A stretch of 43,299 nucleotides of DNA from a virus (taxonomy: Duplodnaviria; Heunggongvirae; Uroviricota; Caudoviricetes), in the IMG/VR virus record IMGVR_UViG_2703718838_000011; one strand, 5' to 3'. Shown piece by piece: positions 24,027-41,065 of the stretch. Numbering within the stretch: position 1 is the stretch's first letter; every line of letters begins with the position of its first letter. A program made the translations under genes and the position numbers. A model generated the notes under the pieces. It was not told the origin of the DNA. It searched no databases and was given only the letters and a program-made list of their open reading frames with translations.

Positions 24027-24926
24027 TTAGCGAATATTCCACATCATCGTGCTGCCATTATGATTTTCAATAATTTTCGCAGCAGGACTCGTACCAAATG
24101 AATGCATGTAGCAATGATGTATAGTCAGCACAAGATCCTGCAGAGTTTGGTCGCTCTCCAGCTCCATAATGTTCAAACCAATGCTTTGCGCTTTATCCAG
24201 ATGAATATGTCTAGCATGCGCATAGGTTGTATGATGATTGTTTAGCTCATCACAAATTCGCTTAGCCTTATCTTGAGCGTTAGCATGACCTGCAAACATA
24301 CCAGTACACAGCCATTTTTGTACTATTTCATTAGCCCAAACAATAGCCTTTTCACATTCACCAATGAGAGTCGGGTTTAGCTTTTGAAGAGTAAATTGCC
24401 ACCATTGGATCGCTGCAGCATTTTCAGAAATCTCTTTCTTAGCTCGCTCATACTCTTCTATGATCGCATGAGATGATAAACCACCAAGCTGCGGATCAAT
24501 TGGCCCCAAATTTGACTGTTTGCCCAATACAATCTGTTCGGCACAGCAAGCCAACATGGTCCCACAACTCATTGAGATCATAGGAACAATTGCCCGGATA
24601 TTGGTCCCAAATTTTGAACGAAGATAATGACCAATAGATTCCAATGCTGCAATATCTCCCCCTGGGGTATGAAGCAAGATATCCAGCCCTAATGACGTGT
24701 CTAAGCCGTTAATGGCTGACATAAGACCATTTTTATCGTCATCTGACATTTGTATTAAATGCTGCAACCCAGGCCCCCCCTTCTGGAGGAAGCCTGAGTA
24801 ATATGAAATTACGTTTCGGCCTGTATGCTTCGACAACTCTCGTAAGTACTTGTGGCGAACCTCATCCGCTGGTGTACGTTGAGCAATAGTACCCATCTCG
24901 CCCAACACGTCTATCCAATTTGGCAT
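24027..24926 (-). CDS. SDH-family Clp-fold serine protease (ClpP/SppA-like)
   Basis: 299-aa ORF; segment LLHTPGGDIAALESIGHYLRSKFG...PMISMSCGTMLACCAEQ resembles the serine dehydrogenase proteinase family; family assignment from memory. Confidence 0.55.
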   Translation of the reverse strand: MPNWIDVLGEMGTIAQRTPADEVRHKYLRELSKHTGRNVISYYSGFLQKGGPGLQHLIQMSDDDKNGLMSAINGLDTSLGLDILLHTPGGDIAALESIGHYLRSKFGTNIRAIVPMISMSCGTMLACCAEQIVLGKQSNLGPIDPQLGGLSSHAIIEEYERAKKEISENAAAIQWWQFTLQKLNPTLIGECEKAIVWANEIVQKWLCTGMFAGHANAQDKAKRICDELNNHHTTYAHARHIHLDKAQSIGLNIMELESDQTLQDLVLTIHHCYMHSFGTSPAAKIIENHNGSTMMWNIR

Positions 24927-28569: not shown

Positions 28570-28724
28570 AAAAAATCCCCTTGAGTTATGGAGGGGATTA
28601 TAGGTCAGGCCGCGATTTGTTTCGACTGGCATAGTTCCGGCAGGTTAGCCCTCACCAGTGCTACAGCGAACGGGGGCACAGCCAAAAATAAAAACCGCCT
28701 AACCTGGTTGAAATTCGTTCAATT

Positions 28725-29066
28725 TTATTTGCAGGTAAATTGCACTACATCACCCTGAGACATTTGAAAGAATCGGTAATCACCATCTCCACGTCTTTGT
28801 ATAATATTGCCCTCTTTAGTCGCACCAGATGGGTATGTCTTTCCTTCCGGTTTTTCTGGCCTAATCTTGCTTGTGGTGTAAGAAATGGTCCCAAAGTTAA
28901 CTGTTATTGAATTTCCGATGTCAGTTATATTTGCCTTTACTTCGCCGGATTTTACTTCATTTGAGGTCATACTCCTTGCTATTCCAGAGCATACATATTC
29001 CTTTGCTTCAACGGCATGGGGCATAAGAAAGCCAATTCCTAACAACGTGATCGCCAAATATTTCAC
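28725..29066 (-). CDS. secreted protein of unknown function (moron)
   Basis: GTG 29066 with SD AAGGAG; signal peptide VKYLAITLLGIGFLMPHAVEA; extended -10 promoter TGTATAAT on minus strand at 29110-29117; Cys near both ends of mature part. Confidence 0.5.
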   Translation of the reverse strand: MKYLAITLLGIGFLMPHAVEAKEYVCSGIARSMTSNEVKSGEVKANITDIGNSITVNFGTISYTTSKIRPEKPEGKTYPSGATKEGNIIQRRGDGDYRFFQMSQGDVVQFTCK

Positions 29067-29228
29067 TTTATCTTCTCCTTGATGAGTCCCCCTCGATACT
29101 TTGGGAGGGATTATACAAAAGAAAAGTGTGGTCATGGCTATTTTTGGTAATGTTATTCGATGATAATTCACTTTATTTTTTAAATCATAATGCTATATTT
29201 CTTTCACCCCTTGCTTGCAAGGTACAAC

Positions 29229-29320
29229 GGAGGGTTGGCCGAGTGGTTGATGGCACCTCACTGATAATGAGGCGTACGGGCTATAAACCCGTACCGCGGG
29301 TTCGAACCCCGCACCCTATT
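29229..29320 (+). tRNA. tRNA-like gene with class II (long variable arm) fold; anticodon loop CUGAUAA gives anticodon GAU if folded canonically; acceptor stem imperfect
   Basis: Hand fold: acceptor GGAGGGT/ACCCTAT (one mismatch, one G-U), D-arm GCC-GAGTGGTTGAT-GGC, anticodon stem CCTCA/TGAGG, variable arm with 7-bp stem GTACGGG/CCCGTAC, T-arm GCGGG-TTCGAAC-CCCGC; no encoded CCA. Confidence 0.45.
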
Positions 29321-29321
29321 T

Positions 29322-29359
29322 AAGGGGTCGACAAATGTCGGCCCCTTCTTCGTTTTATA
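29322..29359 (+). terminator. rho-independent terminator following the tRNA-like gene
   Basis: 9-bp stem GGGGTCGAC/GTCGGCCCC (one G-U) with 4-nt loop, followed by TTCTTCGTTTT. Confidence 0.65.
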
Positions 29360-29408
29360 CATCAAATTTGGCTCTACCCGCACCGCATTCCTACCTGCTA
29401 AAACTTCA

Positions 29409-29540
29409 TCAATCACCTGCCATTGCGTAGCCGAGATTACCGCCGTCGCTTTGTGCTGCTGCTTTTATGAGTATTTCCTGTATCTCGTGCAGACGATCGA
29501 GTGATACAGGACCGTTCACCGGGTGGTTGTTAATTGTCAT
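29409..29540 (-). CDS. possible small ORF (43 aa)
   Basis: ATG 29540 with SD AAGGA 5 nt upstream; MTINNHPVNGPVSLDRLHEIQEILIKAAAQSDGGNLGYAMAGD; below track cutoff. Confidence 0.3.
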   Translation of the reverse strand: MTINNHPVNGPVSLDRLHEIQEILIKAAAQSDGGNLGYAMAGD

Positions 29541-29542
29541 GG

Positions 29543-30020
29543 TTAGTCCTTCACAAAGATAATCCAATGGGTTTTGTCGTTCTTCCCAGTACGCTGACCA
29601 ATTGCAGGTTTCACGTCAGTAAGAGCTAAAATCTGGCTAACCGGGATCTGCGTTTCGTTCCATTTGAAAATAAGCACGCCGCGCGGCCACAGCACCCGAA
29701 ACGCTTCTTTGAAACCGGCGCGTAAGTCAGAGCGCCACGTTTTTTTTGTTCAGTCGCCCGTATTTTTTACCCATCCAGGCAGACTGGCCCACGCGCTCGA
29801 GGTGCGGCGGGTCAAACACCACAACCGGAAAAGAAGAATCAGCGAACGGCAGTGAACGAAAGTCTGAAATCAGGTCTGGACTGATAACCAGGCGGCGACC
29901 GTCGCACAGTTCGTGCTCTTCGGCGCGAATATCAGTGAACACGGCGCGGGTGTCCTGCTTGTTGAACCAGAACATGCGGGAGCCGCAGCACATATCAAGA
30001 ATCGTCGTGTTGTCGGTCAT
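29543..30020 (-). pseudogene. small DNA methyltransferase-like gene split by a frameshift in a homopolymer (A8 on coding strand, T8 at 29740-29747)
   Basis: N-part from ATG 30020 has MTase-like motifs (ILDMCCGS, VVVFDPPH) and stops at 29727; the +1 frame continues through ...FKEAFRVLWPRGVLIFKWNE... to TAA at 29543. Confidence 0.5.
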
Positions 30021-36571: not shown

Positions 36572-39500
36572 ATGGAATTTCCATATGTAGTTAAAGCCAC
36601 GCAAAAGTCGGGAAAGCCTGATGCTTTTGTCTGGTTCACTGCAAAAACAGAGGCTCGCGCCAACCTGATGCTGGATGTTGCGCTGGAAGATGCTGGCATC
36701 GAAACGGGCCGTGGCAAGGACTACGCCAAACCGATTCGCACTGATTTCCCGGTTGTTGACGACCTGCCAGAAGAAGGTGAGATTGATTTCACCTGGTGTG
36801 ATCGCTACGAACTTCAGGACGATGGGCGCACCTGGCTGCCAAAAGCCGCTGGTGAGTCTACTGGCACCGTTGACGCCTCCTCCACACCTACTCCGACCGT
36901 AATCGTTGAAGACGCGACTGCGTCCGAAATTGTCCCGGTTGAAAACCGTACTCCAGCAGTCCGCTATGCCGTCCATCTGATGATTGATAAATACCAGACT
37001 CATATCACTAAAGAGCAGCAACTGGCTGCCAGCGAAATGTCAATGGATGAAGGAAATACATATCTCCAGAGCATGCTTGTGGCAAGGAACGATGTGCCCG
37101 CGACCGCCAAACTCAGCCTGAATGCTGAGTGGAAAATGATTCGGGCGGTTAAGGACATTTTCACACCAGACGAAGAGCACGAACCAAGATTGATCGCTGC
37201 ATTCATGTCTGACTGGGTGAACACCGATGCCGGTGACCGCAATCAACTGGTAGAAGACTGGCGCAGTGGTAAGTTGCAGTTGCTCAAAACTGAAACCAGC
37301 AACGCTGCTGACGTTACAACGGGTCAAGATCTCACTGTTGAGGACGGTATCCAGGCCGACGAGCACGGCCGGGCAGAAGGTGGCGTCGTTGATAGTGAAG
37401 TCGATACCGAAGAGCAATCCCAGCAGATACAGCAACCGAACCTGATCGTTGTTGCCACCCTGCCTTTCCGCCAGCGCGTACTGGCTCAGTTCATCGGTGA
37501 TGGTGAATATCTCTATCACGTCGATGCCGGGCAGAAAAACGATATTGTCCGTCTTGAGATGGACACTGATGACGCGTACGTCCAGAACCTCCTGCTGGCT
37601 GCTGAGAATGTAGAAGCATTCAAAAAAGCTATTGATCTCGACATCCATAGAGTCGTGAAAGCCGTTAAGCAAGTATTCTCTGTCGACGGGAAAAAACCTG
37701 ATCTGGCAACAGTTATCCAGTTCCTGACGGTGTGGTTCAAAACTGATTACATTGACCGCGGCATCCTGGCACGCGAATGGGCCGCCGGTAACCGCATCAG
37801 TAATGTTCAGCGCACCGATTCTGGTACCAACGCTGATGGCGGATATGTCACTGACCGTGGACCTGACGCACACCACACCCTGGACACTCTCGATTTAGAG
37901 ATTGCCTGTGCCCTTCTGCCTATGGACTTCAACCACTTCGAGATCCCAGGCAGCATTCTTCGTCGCGCCAAAGAAATCGTGACCAAAAAAGAAGAACCGT
38001 GGAAATCATGGAGCAGCATTCTGCGCAATCAGCCTGGCGCTCTTGGCGTTAACCGCACGGCTATTTTTAACCTGGTACGTATCGCGCCGGAAAATATTCA
38101 TCTAACCCCTGTCGCTCACCTGGAATTTGTTAACCAGACCATGACTGCTGAATTCAACTCTGCGGTTGAGTTATTGCCGTTGCATGAAGCTGAAGTAGCA
38201 ACTCAGGAAATTCACCAACCTGAAAGTAAGGAGTCTCCGCGCAAATCCTTCTGCACTCACGAAGAGAACCTGCAACGCGTGCGTGAAGAAGGAGCACGCC
38301 GCCGCGCAGAGGAAGCTGCGGCACAACCGCAGAAAGTCGAACAAGAACTGGTTAAAAATGTCGGCAACGGAATATTCGACGTTACGGCTTTGCTGCAGAA
38401 CTCAGCTACTCATGGCACGAAAAAGGCTACGGAGACCACCAGCAATGTGCAGGTTCAAGAAACTGTCAGTGATGAAAAACAGGCTGGTACTGAAGTGCAG
38501 TCAGGCAAAAGCAGTATGGAAACTGGTGAAGAATCAGATACCAGCCAGCAAGCCGATGTAAACCAGAATACGGATTCTGTCGCCCAAAATAGCGATTCTG
38601 TAAACCAGACTGAACCAGTTTTGGCACAAACCGAGCCAGATGCCCAATCTGACGAACCAGCTGTTGTTTACCCCGCTTACTTCGAGCCAGGTCGCTATGA
38701 AGGTCTGCCGAACGAGGTTTATCACGCAGCGAACGGGATCAGCAGCACGCAGGTAAAAGATGCCCGCGTTAGCCTGATGTACTTCAACGCGCGCCACGTT
38801 GCCAAAACGATCACCAAAGAGCGTTCTCCGGTGCTGGACATGGGTAACCTGGTTCATGCACTGGCGTTGCAGCCAGAGCAGCTCGATGAGGAATTCAGCG
38901 TTGAACCGGTAATTCCGGAAGGCGCATTCACCACGACGGCAACGATCCGCGCGTTTATCGATGATTACAACGCAGGTCTGCAAGCGCTGCTGAGTGCAGA
39001 TGAGATCAAAGCCTTGCTCGAAGAATACAACGCCACTCTGCCAGCACAGGTGCCGCTGGGTGGTTCAGTCGAGGAAACTGGTCAGAGCTATATGTCGCTT
39101 CCTGAAGAGTATCAGCGTATCGAAGCGGACCAGAAGCAGACCGCAGCGGCGATGAAAGCCTGCATCAAGGAATACAACGCCACTCTGCCAGCACAGGTGA
39201 AAACCAGCGGTAGCCGTGATGCGTTACTCGAGCAGCTGGCAATCATCAATCCTGACCTGGTGGCCCAGGAAGCGCAGAAGCCGCAACCGCTGAAAGTGTC
39301 CGGTACCAAATCAGACCTGATACAGGCCGTGAAGTCTGTTAATCCGGACGCCGTCTTCGCCGACGAATTGCTGGATGCCTGGCGTGAGAATCCGCAAGGA
39401 AAAGTTCTGGTCACCCGCCAGCAACTGTGCACCGCACTGGCCATTCAGAAAGCCCTGCTCCAGCACCCAACCGCCGGGATGCTACTCCAGCACCCGAGCC

Positions 39501-39961
39501 GCGCCGTGGAGGTCAGCTACTTTGGTTTTGACGACGAAACTGGGCTTGAAGTCCGCGTTCGTCCAGACCTTGAGATCGATCTGGACGGAGTGCGCATCGG
39601 TGCCGACCTGAAAACCATCAGCATGTGGAACATTAAGCAGGAAGGCCTGCGCGCCAAACTGCACCGCGAAATCATCGACCGTGACTACCACCTGAGCGCG
39701 GCTATGTATTGCGAGACCGCAGCACTGGATCAGTTCTTCTGGATTTTCGTCAACAAAGACGAGAACTACCACTGGATCGCCATCATTGAGGCATCAACCG
39801 AACTGCTGGAACTGGGCATGCTCGAGTACCGCAAGGCGATGCGCGCTATCGCTACCGGTTTTGACACTGGCGAGTGGCCAGCGCCGATCACCGCAGACTA
39901 CACCGACGAACTGAACGACTTCGACCTGCGCCGCCTTGAAGCGCTGCGTACTCAGGCATAA
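36572..39961 (+). CDS. recE: RecE-like exonuclease VIII (large N-terminal extension plus C-terminal PD-(D/E)XK nuclease domain)
   Basis: 1129 aa; C-terminal region ...VRPDLEIDLDG..IGADLKTISM... with nuclease-type motifs; immediately followed by SSAP gene as in Rac recE-recT. Confidence 0.75.
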   Translation: MEFPYVVKATQKSGKPDAFVWFTAKTEARANLMLDVALEDAGIETGRGKDYAKPIRTDFPVVDDLPEEGEIDFTWCDRYELQDDGRTWLPKAAGESTGTVDASSTPTPTVIVEDATASEIVPVENRTPAVRYAVHLMIDKYQTHITKEQQLAASEMSMDEGNTYLQSMLVARNDVPATAKLSLNAEWKMIRAVKDIFTPDEEHEPRLIAAFMSDWVNTDAGDRNQLVEDWRSGKLQLLKTETSNAADVTTGQDLTVEDGIQADEHGRAEGGVVDSEVDTEEQSQQIQQPNLIVVATLPFRQRVLAQFIGDGEYLYHVDAGQKNDIVRLEMDTDDAYVQNLLLAAENVEAFKKAIDLDIHRVVKAVKQVFSVDGKKPDLATVIQFLTVWFKTDYIDRGILAREWAAGNRISNVQRTDSGTNADGGYVTDRGPDAHHTLDTLDLEIACALLPMDFNHFEIPGSILRRAKEIVTKKEEPWKSWSSILRNQPGALGVNRTAIFNLVRIAPENIHLTPVAHLEFVNQTMTAEFNSAVELLPLHEAEVATQEIHQPESKESPRKSFCTHEENLQRVREEGARRRAEEAAAQPQKVEQELVKNVGNGIFDVTALLQNSATHGTKKATETTSNVQVQETVSDEKQAGTEVQSGKSSMETGEESDTSQQADVNQNTDSVAQNSDSVNQTEPVLAQTEPDAQSDEPAVVYPAYFEPGRYEGLPNEVYHAANGISSTQVKDARVSLMYFNARHVAKTITKERSPVLDMGNLVHALALQPEQLDEEFSVEPVIPEGAFTTTATIRAFIDDYNAGLQALLSADEIKALLEEYNATLPAQVPLGGSVEETGQSYMSLPEEYQRIEADQKQTAAAMKACIKEYNATLPAQVKTSGSRDALLEQLAIINPDLVAQEAQKPQPLKVSGTKSDLIQAVKSVNPDAVFADELLDAWRENPQGKVLVTRQQLCTALAIQKALLQHPTAGMLLQHPSRAVEVSYFGFDDETGLEVRVRPDLEIDLDGVRIGADLKTISMWNIKQEGLRAKLHREIIDRDYHLSAAMYCETAALDQFFWIFVNKDENYHWIAIIEASTELLELGMLEYRKAMRAIATGFDTGEWPAPITADYTDELNDFDLRRLEALRTQA

Positions 39962-39973
39962 GGGGAAAAGAAC

Positions 39974-41065
39974 ATGTCTACTGCAATTACTACCAACGAA
40001 AACAAGACGCAAATGATCGATAACATCTCAATTTTGACTAATGGGGAACTTTTCGACCGCCTACGCACCTTGTCGACAGTGATGGCAAATAGTGGCGCTT
40101 TTGTACCTGACCACTTCCGCGGAAAACCAGATGCCTGCATGGCTGTGGTCATGCAGGCCGCACGATGGGGTATGGACCCCTTTGCCGTAGCTCAGAAGAC
40201 CCACATCGTCGGTAATAGCGGAGTGTTGGGTTACGAAGCTCAACTGGTTAATGCGGTTGTTACCAACATGTCGCCTACAAAAGATCGCCTTCATTACGAT
40301 TGGTTTGGCCCATGGGAAAACATCATTGGTCGATTTGTAGAGAGAACCAGTTCTAAAGGCAATAAGTACATCGCGCCCGGTTGGGATTTAAAGGATGAGG
40401 CCGGTGTAGGAATTCGTGTGTGGGCAACGATGAAAGGCGAGGATGAGCCACGCGAACTGGTACTCATGCTTTCTCAGGCTCAGGTTCGTAATTCGACACT
40501 ATGGGCAAGTGATCCGCGTCAGCAGCTCGCTTATCTCGCGGTAAAGCGCTGGGCTCGCTTGTACTGCCCTGATGTGATTCTTGGTGTTTACAGTGCCGAT
40601 GAAGTCGAAGAACGAGAAGAAAAAGTTATTAACCCTGGCTCAGCCCAACGAATGAGCGTTGCTGAAATCGCAGGTGACACCGTCACAACTACGCAAAGCG
40701 CACACGAATCGTCGGTAAATATCGACGCTCTTGCCGATGATTTCCGCGAGCGCATCGAGGCAGCACAGGATGTTGATAGCGCCAAAGCACTGCGTGCTGA
40801 TATCGAAAGCGCGAAGGCCACGCTCGGATCTGCCCTGTTCACCGAGCTGAAGAATAAGGCAGTGAAGCGCTACTACCTGGTTGATTCACGTAACAAGGTT
40901 GAAGCCGCGATAAACTCCCTGCCGTCTCCGGATGATCCGGATGCAGCTGAACGGTTTGGGGAAGTTGAGCGAGTTCTTGCAACGGCGAAACGTCATCTGG
41001 GCGACGAACTGCACGATCAGTTCAGCATCACCTTGGCGGATATGAAACCGGAATACGTGGCCTAA
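39974..41065 (+). CDS. recT: single-strand annealing protein, RecT/Redbeta-like recombinase
   Basis: 363-aa ORF directly downstream of recE-like gene; family by position and loose motif similarity. Confidence 0.6.
   Translation: MSTAITTNENKTQMIDNISILTNGELFDRLRTLSTVMANSGAFVPDHFRGKPDACMAVVMQAARWGMDPFAVAQKTHIVGNSGVLGYEAQLVNAVVTNMSPTKDRLHYDWFGPWENIIGRFVERTSSKGNKYIAPGWDLKDEAGVGIRVWATMKGEDEPRELVLMLSQAQVRNSTLWASDPRQQLAYLAVKRWARLYCPDVILGVYSADEVEEREEKVINPGSAQRMSVAEIAGDTVTTTQSAHESSVNIDALADDFRERIEAAQDVDSAKALRADIESAKATLGSALFTELKNKAVKRYYLVDSRNKVEAAINSLPSPDDPDAAERFGEVERVLATAKRHLGDELHDQFSITLADMKPEYVA

Follow-up and report, generated by a model that had tools for sequence, protein, structure and literature searches.

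The stretch of DNA analysed here (43,299 nucleotides, hereafter the window) contains a small minus-strand reading frame that points away from a tRNA gene, and this arrangement raises the question of whether the frame is a genuine gene for a secreted protein and, if so, from where it is expressed and what its product might do. The initial annotation saw in it a protein with a signal peptide that could be expressed independently of the phage operon from an extended -10 promoter of its own in the manner of a lysogenic-conversion moron. The explanation that we favour, and to which we would assign a probability of about 55% as a whole, is that the frame (ORF113) is a mobile cargo gene, that its product is an exported barrel acting as an envelope-protective binder, and that it is transcribed by read-through with a possible contribution from a junction promoter.

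ORF113 as a gene and as prophage cargo

ORF113 occupies 28725..29066 on the minus strand, from a GTG start (29066-29064) to a TAA stop, and encodes a precursor of 113 residues. The start codon is preceded, with a spacer of 8 nt, by the strong Shine-Dalgarno sequence AAGGAG (29075..29080, minus strand), and the same frame is called by NCBI PGAP in identical E. coli prophages (WP_039022277.1, hypothetical protein), in agreement with what had initially been annotated. Two longer in-frame readings, one of 148 residues from a GTG at 29171 given by an ORF finder and one of 136 residues in a public gene call (P0001), were rejected, since the Klebsiella relatives have an in-frame TAA five codons ahead of the start that interrupts the extension, and the 113-residue reading is therefore the conserved one. 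The six nucleotide lineages of ORF113 are identical in length (113 codons), with pS of 0.5-0.67, dS of about 1 and dN of 0.12-0.22, and dN/dS between lineages is 0.09-0.23 at synonymous sites that are near saturation. The nine family members (45-78% identical) furthermore have 25 invariant columns in common, among them both cysteines and the block P-x-x-P-x-G-K-x-x-P-x-G-x-T-x-E-G-N-I-I-Q. ORF113 is thus a genuine gene under purifying selection, and the conservation on which the initial annotation had staked its claim is borne out.

The gene is nonetheless rare. Homologues form six 90%-identity clusters among 5.8 billion proteins, and a profile scan of 1.84 billion representatives added three further distant members of 45-50% identity, the four other hits being long repetitive proteins, which brings the family to about nine clusters in all. 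The identical sequence is found in 11 of 5426 complete E. coli genomes, where it adjoins a 'tRNA-Ile' on the other strand. A tblastn search of 50,697 phage records and 72,556 plasmids found no homologue, none was found in isolated phage genomes, and a scan of the GTDB species representatives returned nothing but a spurious 39-residue match in Butyrivibrio. Some of the distant members adjoin an integrase gene and an AlpA-like HTH gene, and others a PriCT primase gene; it is this distribution across mobile-element contexts, together with the absence from the phages, plasmids and GTDB representatives searched, that marks ORF113 as a rare, portable cargo gene.

The window itself is a lambdoid prophage with its early-right operon on the minus strand, in the order repressor/cro-type region, O, DnaC-like gene, nin-type genes, Q and lysis genes. 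GC content over ORF113 is 0.36-0.41, as against 0.53-0.57 in both flanks, and the gene belongs to a mosaic block (28609-29553) that comprises the end of a small ORF, the divergent tRNA gene, ORF113 and its 3' UTR. This block sits in E. coli prophages with differing replication and downstream genes, being followed by a theta gene in the window and by a terminator and then an SOS-box dinI gene in locus L008 (E. coli TC24). In the latter (4960-5100) a strong intrinsic terminator, CCCGCTACGGCGGG with a T-run, comes after the ORF113 3' UTR, and the dinI-family gene that then follows has a perfect LexA box, TACTGTATAAAAACACAGTA, ahead of it and appears as an SOS-controlled nin-region moron. The early-left arm of the window (36572-41065, plus strand) encodes a Rac-type RecE (1129 aa, with Exonuc_VIII and PDDEXK domains) and RecT, whereas the prophage that harbours the nearly identical ORF113 block of locus L001 has exo/bet/gam of the lambda type, and the mosaicism is illustrated by this difference around one and the same block. 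Elsewhere in the window, a 299-residue ORF between the Q region and the lysis genes (24027-24926, minus strand) matches a ClpP-like SDH-type serine protease family (PF01972, E 2e-21), an unusual passenger at a place where lambdoid phages often carry morons.

In the Klebsiella loci and IMG/VR contigs ORF113 is likewise found in nin regions and co-oriented with the operon, with no tRNA nearby and with a phage theta (holE-like) gene within 60 nt after it. The Klebsiella relatives start 51 nt after the preceding early-operon gene without a terminator in between, and no terminator was found flanking the gene on either side in these loci. In five loci (L002-L006) ORF113 lies between the junction element described below and theta, whereas elsewhere a DUF551-type gene, the element and theta are contiguous; ORF113 is, in other words, additional DNA separating genes that stand side by side in related phages, and its GC content differs from that of the surrounding genes. 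Taken together, the notion that ORF113 is a real gene with an exported product, carried as horizontally mobile, moron-like nin-region cargo of a lambdoid prophage, seems to us very probable. The moron reading of the initial annotation accordingly stands as far as the extra DNA, the low GC content, the mobility and the secreted product are concerned, but the 'extended -10' promoter that was part of it had been placed out of register.

The tRNA gene was correctly recognized as divergent from ORF113; it is found at 29229..29320 on the plus strand (92 nt, long variable arm, anticodon GAU) within the mosaic block, and it travels with ORF113 in E. coli only, being absent from all non-E. coli ORF113 loci. 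It has a class II shape with a 19-nt variable arm (46.4 bits against the Rfam tRNA model), a G2:A71 mismatch, a G1:U72 wobble, U as discriminator and no encoded CCA, and its D-arm resembles that of tRNA-Ser. If a synthetase for class II arms were to charge it, such a long-arm tRNA could use its Ile anticodon to mis-decode AUC/AUU; alternatively, the tRNA may be decaying. The sequence TGcTATATT at 29191..29199 on the plus strand is an extended -10 element in the correct register, and it faces the tRNA gene, not ORF113. Between this promoter and the tRNA 5' end lies a perfect palindrome, CCTTGCTTGCAAGG (29209..29222, plus strand), that could be a protein-binding site or a leader hairpin, and the gene is followed by an intrinsic terminator (29322..29347, plus strand) whose U-run is on the plus strand only, none following on the minus strand.

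The junction element and the transcription of ORF113

The string that had been taken for an extended -10 promoter, TGTATAAT, is indeed present at 29110-29117 on the minus strand, with its TATAAT ending 43 nt before the ORF113 GTG. An extended -10 element has the form TGnTATAAT with the TG at -15/-14, however, and in TTTTGTATAAT the TG abuts the hexamer. The site is not a canonical sigma-70 promoter either, for which we required a -35 hexamer agreeing at 3-4 of 6 positions or more at a distance of 16-18 nt ahead of the -10, since the best match at these spacings is 1/6 (CCATGA at 16 nt). A promoter scan of the window furthermore leaves 29110-29117 unlisted, and the only promoter-like site it reports on the minus strand (28597-28625) belongs to a second element downstream of the gene. 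An A-tract, CCAAAAATA (29139..29147, minus strand), at about -38 to -46 from the expected transcription start, is in our estimation a candidate for something resembling a proximal UP-element subsite. TATAAT is not enriched in the window, where it is found 9 times as against 13.4 expected, and the significance of the hexamer therefore derives from its conservation across lineages only. This conservation is nonetheless striking: the block TGTATAATCCC (29107..29117, minus strand; TATAAT at 29110-29115) is invariant in all diverged lineages, TGTATAATCC is invariant in every one of them despite the near-saturated synonymous sites, and the homology of the window with the Klebsiella loci begins exactly at TGTATAATCC.

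The invariance is explained by the hexamer being the 5' edge of a recurrent junction element. A scan of a viral collection with the 14-mer TGATGTATAATCCC gave mostly chance hits, about 35 of 120 belonging to the element, and an unbiased, protein-anchored sample was therefore used, in which the regions upstream of 80 phage theta genes reduced to 67 distinct sequences. The element is present in about half of these, and 46 distinct copies were collected. The element was noted in enterobacterial lambdoid phages (loci L016-L135 and L136-L215) but is rare in E. coli, where the commonest variant occurs in 14 of the 5426 genomes. In its layout the upstream stop codon is followed by two variable bases and TATAAT, then by the stem halves CC(C/T)(C/T)TC and GAGGGG(G)ATT with a 6-9 nt loop between them, and finally by a T-rich tail that leads to the ATG. 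The stem formed by AAUCCCCUC and GAGGGGAUU (about -14 kcal/mol) takes in the final three bases of the hexamer. Ahead of TATAAT the copies differ (TG, TA, CC, AC), and the -35 matches at 1-3 of 6 positions in nearly all of them, the exception being gTCGAAAcaaat...gcctgaccTATAAT with 4/6 and a 17-nt spacer, a variant represented by the second copy in the window. Some copies directly follow a strong terminator, and in the ORF113 loci compared the homology breakpoints fall at elements. Apart from theta genes, the element precedes unrelated genes such as the next ORF of the window, ORFs beginning MSGWDIGIA... and MSANFSECGKYRY..., and a signal-peptide ORF beginning MYFSLKTFVIITACL.... The last is found in an IMG/VR contig (L075), whose cassette after TGATGTATAATCCC starts with this signal-peptide or lipoprotein-like N-terminus, and since it sits behind the same element, secreted cargo at this position is not unique to ORF113. 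The idea of a promoter private to ORF113 consequently has to be given up, as the same TATAAT is the edge of a generic element ahead of many nin genes. Nothing describing the element turned up when the searchable literature was queried with its sequence.

An alternative cause of the conservation, a mini-ORF ATG TAT AAT CCC (M-Y-N-P) overlapping the preceding stop codon (TGATG), was rejected as the main one: it can be as short as 6 codons or exceed 20, it is not in a consistent frame with the start codon downstream, its ATG is replaced by TTG, ATA, CTA or similar in many copies, and the copy in the window is without an upstream gene. A conserved mini-ORF of 11-13 codons, M(A/P)KS(A/P)AERKAA(Q..), was noted immediately ahead of the element in L007 (about 2270-2312), L010, L011 and many of L141-L215; it often overlaps the preceding stop codon (TGATG) and ends at or just before TATAAT. 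A segment of the ORF113 3' UTR (28603-28640, atgccagtcgaaacaaatcgcggcctga) looks like a diverged relative of it.

The leader of ORF113 corresponds to a junction element with about 12 extra nt. In the window its hairpin, UCCCUC..GAGGGGA (29087..29110, minus strand), is degenerate, with about -9 kcal/mol and no U-run, and what is the element's ATG in L007, L010 and L011 (ATCATGGAG) has here turned into the Shine-Dalgarno sequence (ATCAAGGAG). Among the lineages, L007 and L011 retain an intact hairpin, the window and L010 have a weakened one, and L002 and L003 have none left, yet TATAAT persists throughout. An Rfam search of the leader returned nothing.

On its other side ORF113 is followed by a 3' UTR (28626..28724, minus strand) that is 97-100% identical to that of other E. 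coli prophages, whose homology ends near 28609, and then by a second junction element (28570..28625, minus strand), so that the gene is bracketed by two such elements in the window. The second copy has a -35-like TCGAAA (28620-28625), a 17-nt spacer and TATAAT (28597-28602), and its hairpin, formed by AAUCCCCU and AGGGGAUU (28574-28599), runs into a T-run (28570-28575) that abuts the ATG (28569) of the next ORF, of 60 residues. This terminator-like hairpin and U-run lie about 150 nt downstream of ORF113, and because the hairpin and U6 stand directly before the next start codon, the element can end ORF113 transcripts. As judged from its sequence, it is a likely terminator or attenuator for these and a likely promoter or leader for the next gene. 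The 3' UTR gave nothing in an Rfam search, and the 181-nt 3' region folds at a z of -2.4, which is uncompelling.

As to how ORF113 is transcribed, we propose that it is reached by read-through from the early-right (pR) operon, which is feasible since the terminator of the tRNA gene has its U-run on the plus strand only, and that the conserved -10-only TATAAT of the junction element may add a low level of transcription. Expression in lysogens is a plausible, if putative, outcome. Against this stands the simpler view that ORF113 is just another early-right-operon gene and that the TATAAT element acts at the RNA or DNA level and not as a lysogen promoter, be it as a terminator or attenuator, an SD-sequestering hairpin relieved by translational coupling, a recombination joint, an RNase E site with a protective 5' hairpin or a sigma-70 pause site. 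We consider this a real possibility, although one that falls short of being probable. The 51-nt gap in the Klebsiella loci, with neither terminator nor tRNA, means that there at least ORF113 is also an early-right-operon gene; the element precedes non-cargo genes such as theta, a stem of 9-10 bp (about -14 kcal/mol) has the AAT of the hexamer at its base, and the poor -35 matches and variable bases before TATAAT are likewise what such a view would lead one to expect. However, the TAT half of the hexamer is invariant even though it is without a conserved pairing partner, TATAAT has survived the loss of the hairpin in L002 and L003, one variant has a proper -35 (TCGAAA, 17 nt), and some copies are located right after a strong terminator, where a restart promoter makes sense; in addition, the similarly laid-out PeSLs are proven promoters (PMC2839356). 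The unpaired yet conserved TAT, the hexamer outliving the hairpin, the one real -35 and the post-terminator copies argue that TATAAT is selected as a -10 box, and the lack of a -35 and a TG together with the position ahead of ordinary early genes argue that any promoter activity is weak and may be negligible. The element is probably also a recombination joint by which cassettes like that of ORF113 are moved, and it could explain how nin-region cargo genes are moved and expressed or insulated.

Predicted export and fold, and possible function

The ORF113 N-terminus, MKYLAITLLGIGFLMPHAVEA followed by KEY, reads as a Sec-type (signal peptidase I) signal peptide of residues 1-21 (29004..29066, minus strand), with the predicted cleavage between VEA and KE. 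Measured by rule and hydropathy against a basic n-region, an h-region of 7-15 hydrophobic residues and small or aliphatic residues at -3 and -1, it shows all of these features, dividing into MK, the hydrophobic core YLAITLLGIGFLM (Kyte-Doolittle mean over 11 residues up to 2.5) and PHAVEA before the K, with V-E-A at -3 to -1. Ala-1 is invariant and -3 is V, I or A in 9/9 family members, the signal region otherwise drifting in sequence. The signal peptide proposed at the outset is thus supported by the rule-based features as well as by conservation in nine members, and Sec export of the product to the periplasm is predicted accordingly. A lipobox ([LVI][ASTVI][GAS]C) was not found at the cleavage site, the first cysteine occurring in E-Y-V-C five residues past it, and the protein therefore does not read as a lipoprotein. 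The mature protein would be 92 residues of 10.1 kDa, with a pI of about 9.0, and hydrophilic (GRAVY -0.66). As had been noted, it has a cysteine near either end; Cys26 and Cys112, at mature positions 5 and 91 of 92, are invariant in the family.

AlphaFold2, run on a seven-sequence alignment of ORF113, gave a model with a mean pLDDT of 84, in which the signal peptide alone is low and the mature part is mostly above 90. The predicted fold consists of eight antiparallel β-strands in up-and-down order, three of them of 4 residues each, and with high predicted confidence the mature protein is modelled as a compact soluble eight-stranded antiparallel β-barrel of 92 residues. [quoted passage not shown] The long β4-β5 loop and the next hairpin (PEKPxGKxxPSGxTKEGNIIQ) are the most conserved part of the protein. 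A Foldseek search of the model against the PDB gave nothing below an E of 1e-3, matches in BFVD were weak and confined to phage proteins that are uncharacterised or named 'lipoproteins', and the barrel match is generic, since outer-membrane barrels and de novo designed barrels score alike. Searches of Pfam, PHROGs, NCBIfam and PADLOC with all nine members gave no family match, and a PDB profile search with the family gave none either. The Cap15 β-barrel of CBASS (PDB 7n34) is 9% identical to ORF113 and the PADLOC search did not match; unlike ORF113, Cap15 is anchored in the membrane, responds as an effector to a nucleotide signal in the cytoplasm and is without the signal peptide and disulfide logic.

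We propose that the product would be exported to the periplasm, where DsbA would form the Cys26-Cys112 disulfide, and that the mature protein would then bind something in the cell envelope, the conserved β4-β5 loop and following hairpin being the likely binding surface. Its most probable role would be to protect the carrier cell or the mobile element, conceivably by blocking an envelope-acting enzyme or factor in the way of small PliC/MliC/ACP-type periplasmic barrels or by excluding other phages. Taken by itself this envelope-protective function is putative, and we put it forward as tentative.

The more specific version of this proposal, that ORF113 is a periplasmic inhibitor of peptidoglycan hydrolases, acting against host lysozyme as an analogue of PliC/MliC/ACP or against the tail lysozyme of superinfecting phages in the manner of Spackle, seems unlikely as a claim in its own right. 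The predicted architecture is that of MliC/PliC, namely an eight-stranded antiparallel barrel with cysteines on the first and last strands, and fold, size, compartment and cysteine topology would all be common to the two as far as can be judged from the model. Sequence homology was however rejected, since a profile-profile comparison by hhalign with a profile built from E. coli MliC relatives and two PDB chains gave a probability of 2.2%, and PF09864 (MliC/PliC) had no Pfam match to any of the 9 members even at E up to 10. MliC/PliC proteins are characterized by SxSGAxY in the β4-β5 loop, YxxxTKG on β6 and a disulfide between the first and last strands (PMC5507604). These sequence motifs are absent from the ORF113 family, which has PSGATKEGNIIQRRG, i.e. 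P-[SA]-G-x-T-[KS]-E-G; relative to SxSGAxY only S-G is kept, the tyrosine position is K or S, and strand 6 is without TKG. The lack of a PF09864 match, the profile probability of 2% and the absent motifs together mean that ORF113 is not a member of MliC/PliC. Neisseria ACP and Brucella PhiA, the other proteins with which ORF113 was compared in this respect, illustrate what the fold may entail in such cases: ACP has a PliC-like fold without the family motifs and inhibits lysozyme (PMC5507604), whereas PhiA has the fold without the SGxxY motif and showed neither binding nor inhibition in vitro (PMC8334348), so that possession of the fold is no guarantee of inhibition. T4 Spackle (gp61.3) is, like ORF113, a small phage-encoded periplasmic protein with a signal peptide, and it protects the cell from further infection (PMC7677548, PMC7650644), but it is helical and unrelated to ORF113 in sequence and fold, and is therefore a functional precedent only.

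Similarly doubtful is the reading of ORF113 as a superinfection-exclusion or receptor-masking factor, Cor/Llp-like but soluble, that would bind an outer- or inner-membrane component used by other phages or bacteriocins. Mobile elements of several kinds carry ORF113 as cargo and its product is secreted, in agreement with such a function; among small moron products directed to the envelope, exclusion is the role most often established (PMC3594210, PMC9586334), and another signal-peptide ORF (MYFSLKTFVIITACL...) stands behind the same junction element in L075. On the other hand ORF113 differs from Cor and Llp in lacking both a lipobox and a membrane anchor, and it resembles none of the known exclusion proteins and none of the PADLOC models. 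That ORF113 might instead be an integral eight-stranded outer-membrane barrel of the Lom/Ail/OmpX kind, and as such a lysogenic-conversion virulence factor, is very improbable, given that the mature part is merely 92 residues long and hydrophilic, that three strands have just 4 residues, that two cysteines are conserved and that the protein ends in TCK and hence without a C-terminal aromatic residue. A chance ORF or decaying pseudogene, as one might suspect from the very rare distribution and the lack of any family annotation, has practically no probability left, having already been refuted by the dN/dS analysis, i.e. 0.09-0.23 at a dS of about 1, with the length of 113 codons kept in six lineages and the fold prediction confident as well.

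Comparison with known systems

ORF113 represents a new, tiny and unannotated family of a familiar kind and for the present joins the many secreted prophage ORFans that are uncharacterised; of more general interest is the junction element. Should it protect lysogens against lysozyme, phages or bacteriocins, it would represent a new small periplasmic effector family among the prophage fitness factors of E. coli and Klebsiella. A more far-reaching view, in which ORF113 founds a new mobile-element family of periplasmic barrel inhibitors and the nin junction elements are the temperate-phage counterpart of the PeSLs, is in its entirety improbable. In the inhibitor part of it ORF113 may, like ACP, have converged on the PliC/MliC architecture without the motifs, and the invariant β4-β5 loop may block host lysozyme, phage tail lysozyme or a T6SS or bacteriocin effector; in the other part the elements may, by analogy, be a combined promoter, terminator and recombination joint that shuffles cassettes.

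With regard to the morons, for which HK97 gp15 and lambda bor and lom serve as examples, ORF113 differs in that its upstream element is generic to nin junctions, lacks a -35 and is a candidate promoter only, and in that the Klebsiella versions are without flanking terminators. What it has by way of own signals is the conserved -10-only element upstream and, downstream, the hairpin and U6 in the window or the strong terminator in L008, with none in the Klebsiella loci. As far as morons are described in a later summary of Juhala et al. 2000 (PMC3594210), ORF113 resembles them as extra DNA of atypical GC content with an envelope-targeted product, and, within the same account, also in having a -10 element upstream and, in the E. 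coli version, a hairpin and U-run downstream.

The closest parallel to the junction element is found in the PeSLs (promoter-early stem-loops) of T4-type phages, for which promoter and terminator activity is proven and by which modules are shuffled (PMC2839356). The element differs from these in belonging to the nin region of temperate lambdoid phages and in having an unrelated sequence, and most of its copies are without a recognisable -35 or AT-rich UP region, its promoter and terminator functions being putative. The layout is nevertheless PeSL-like, with a -10 box and an overlapping stem-loop repeated at the borders of variable genes: in both, a stop codon is followed by a sigma-70 -10 box with a stem-loop lying across it and then by a Shine-Dalgarno sequence and a start codon, and both recur at the borders of variable ORFan cassettes, where the homology breakpoints are found (PMC2839356).
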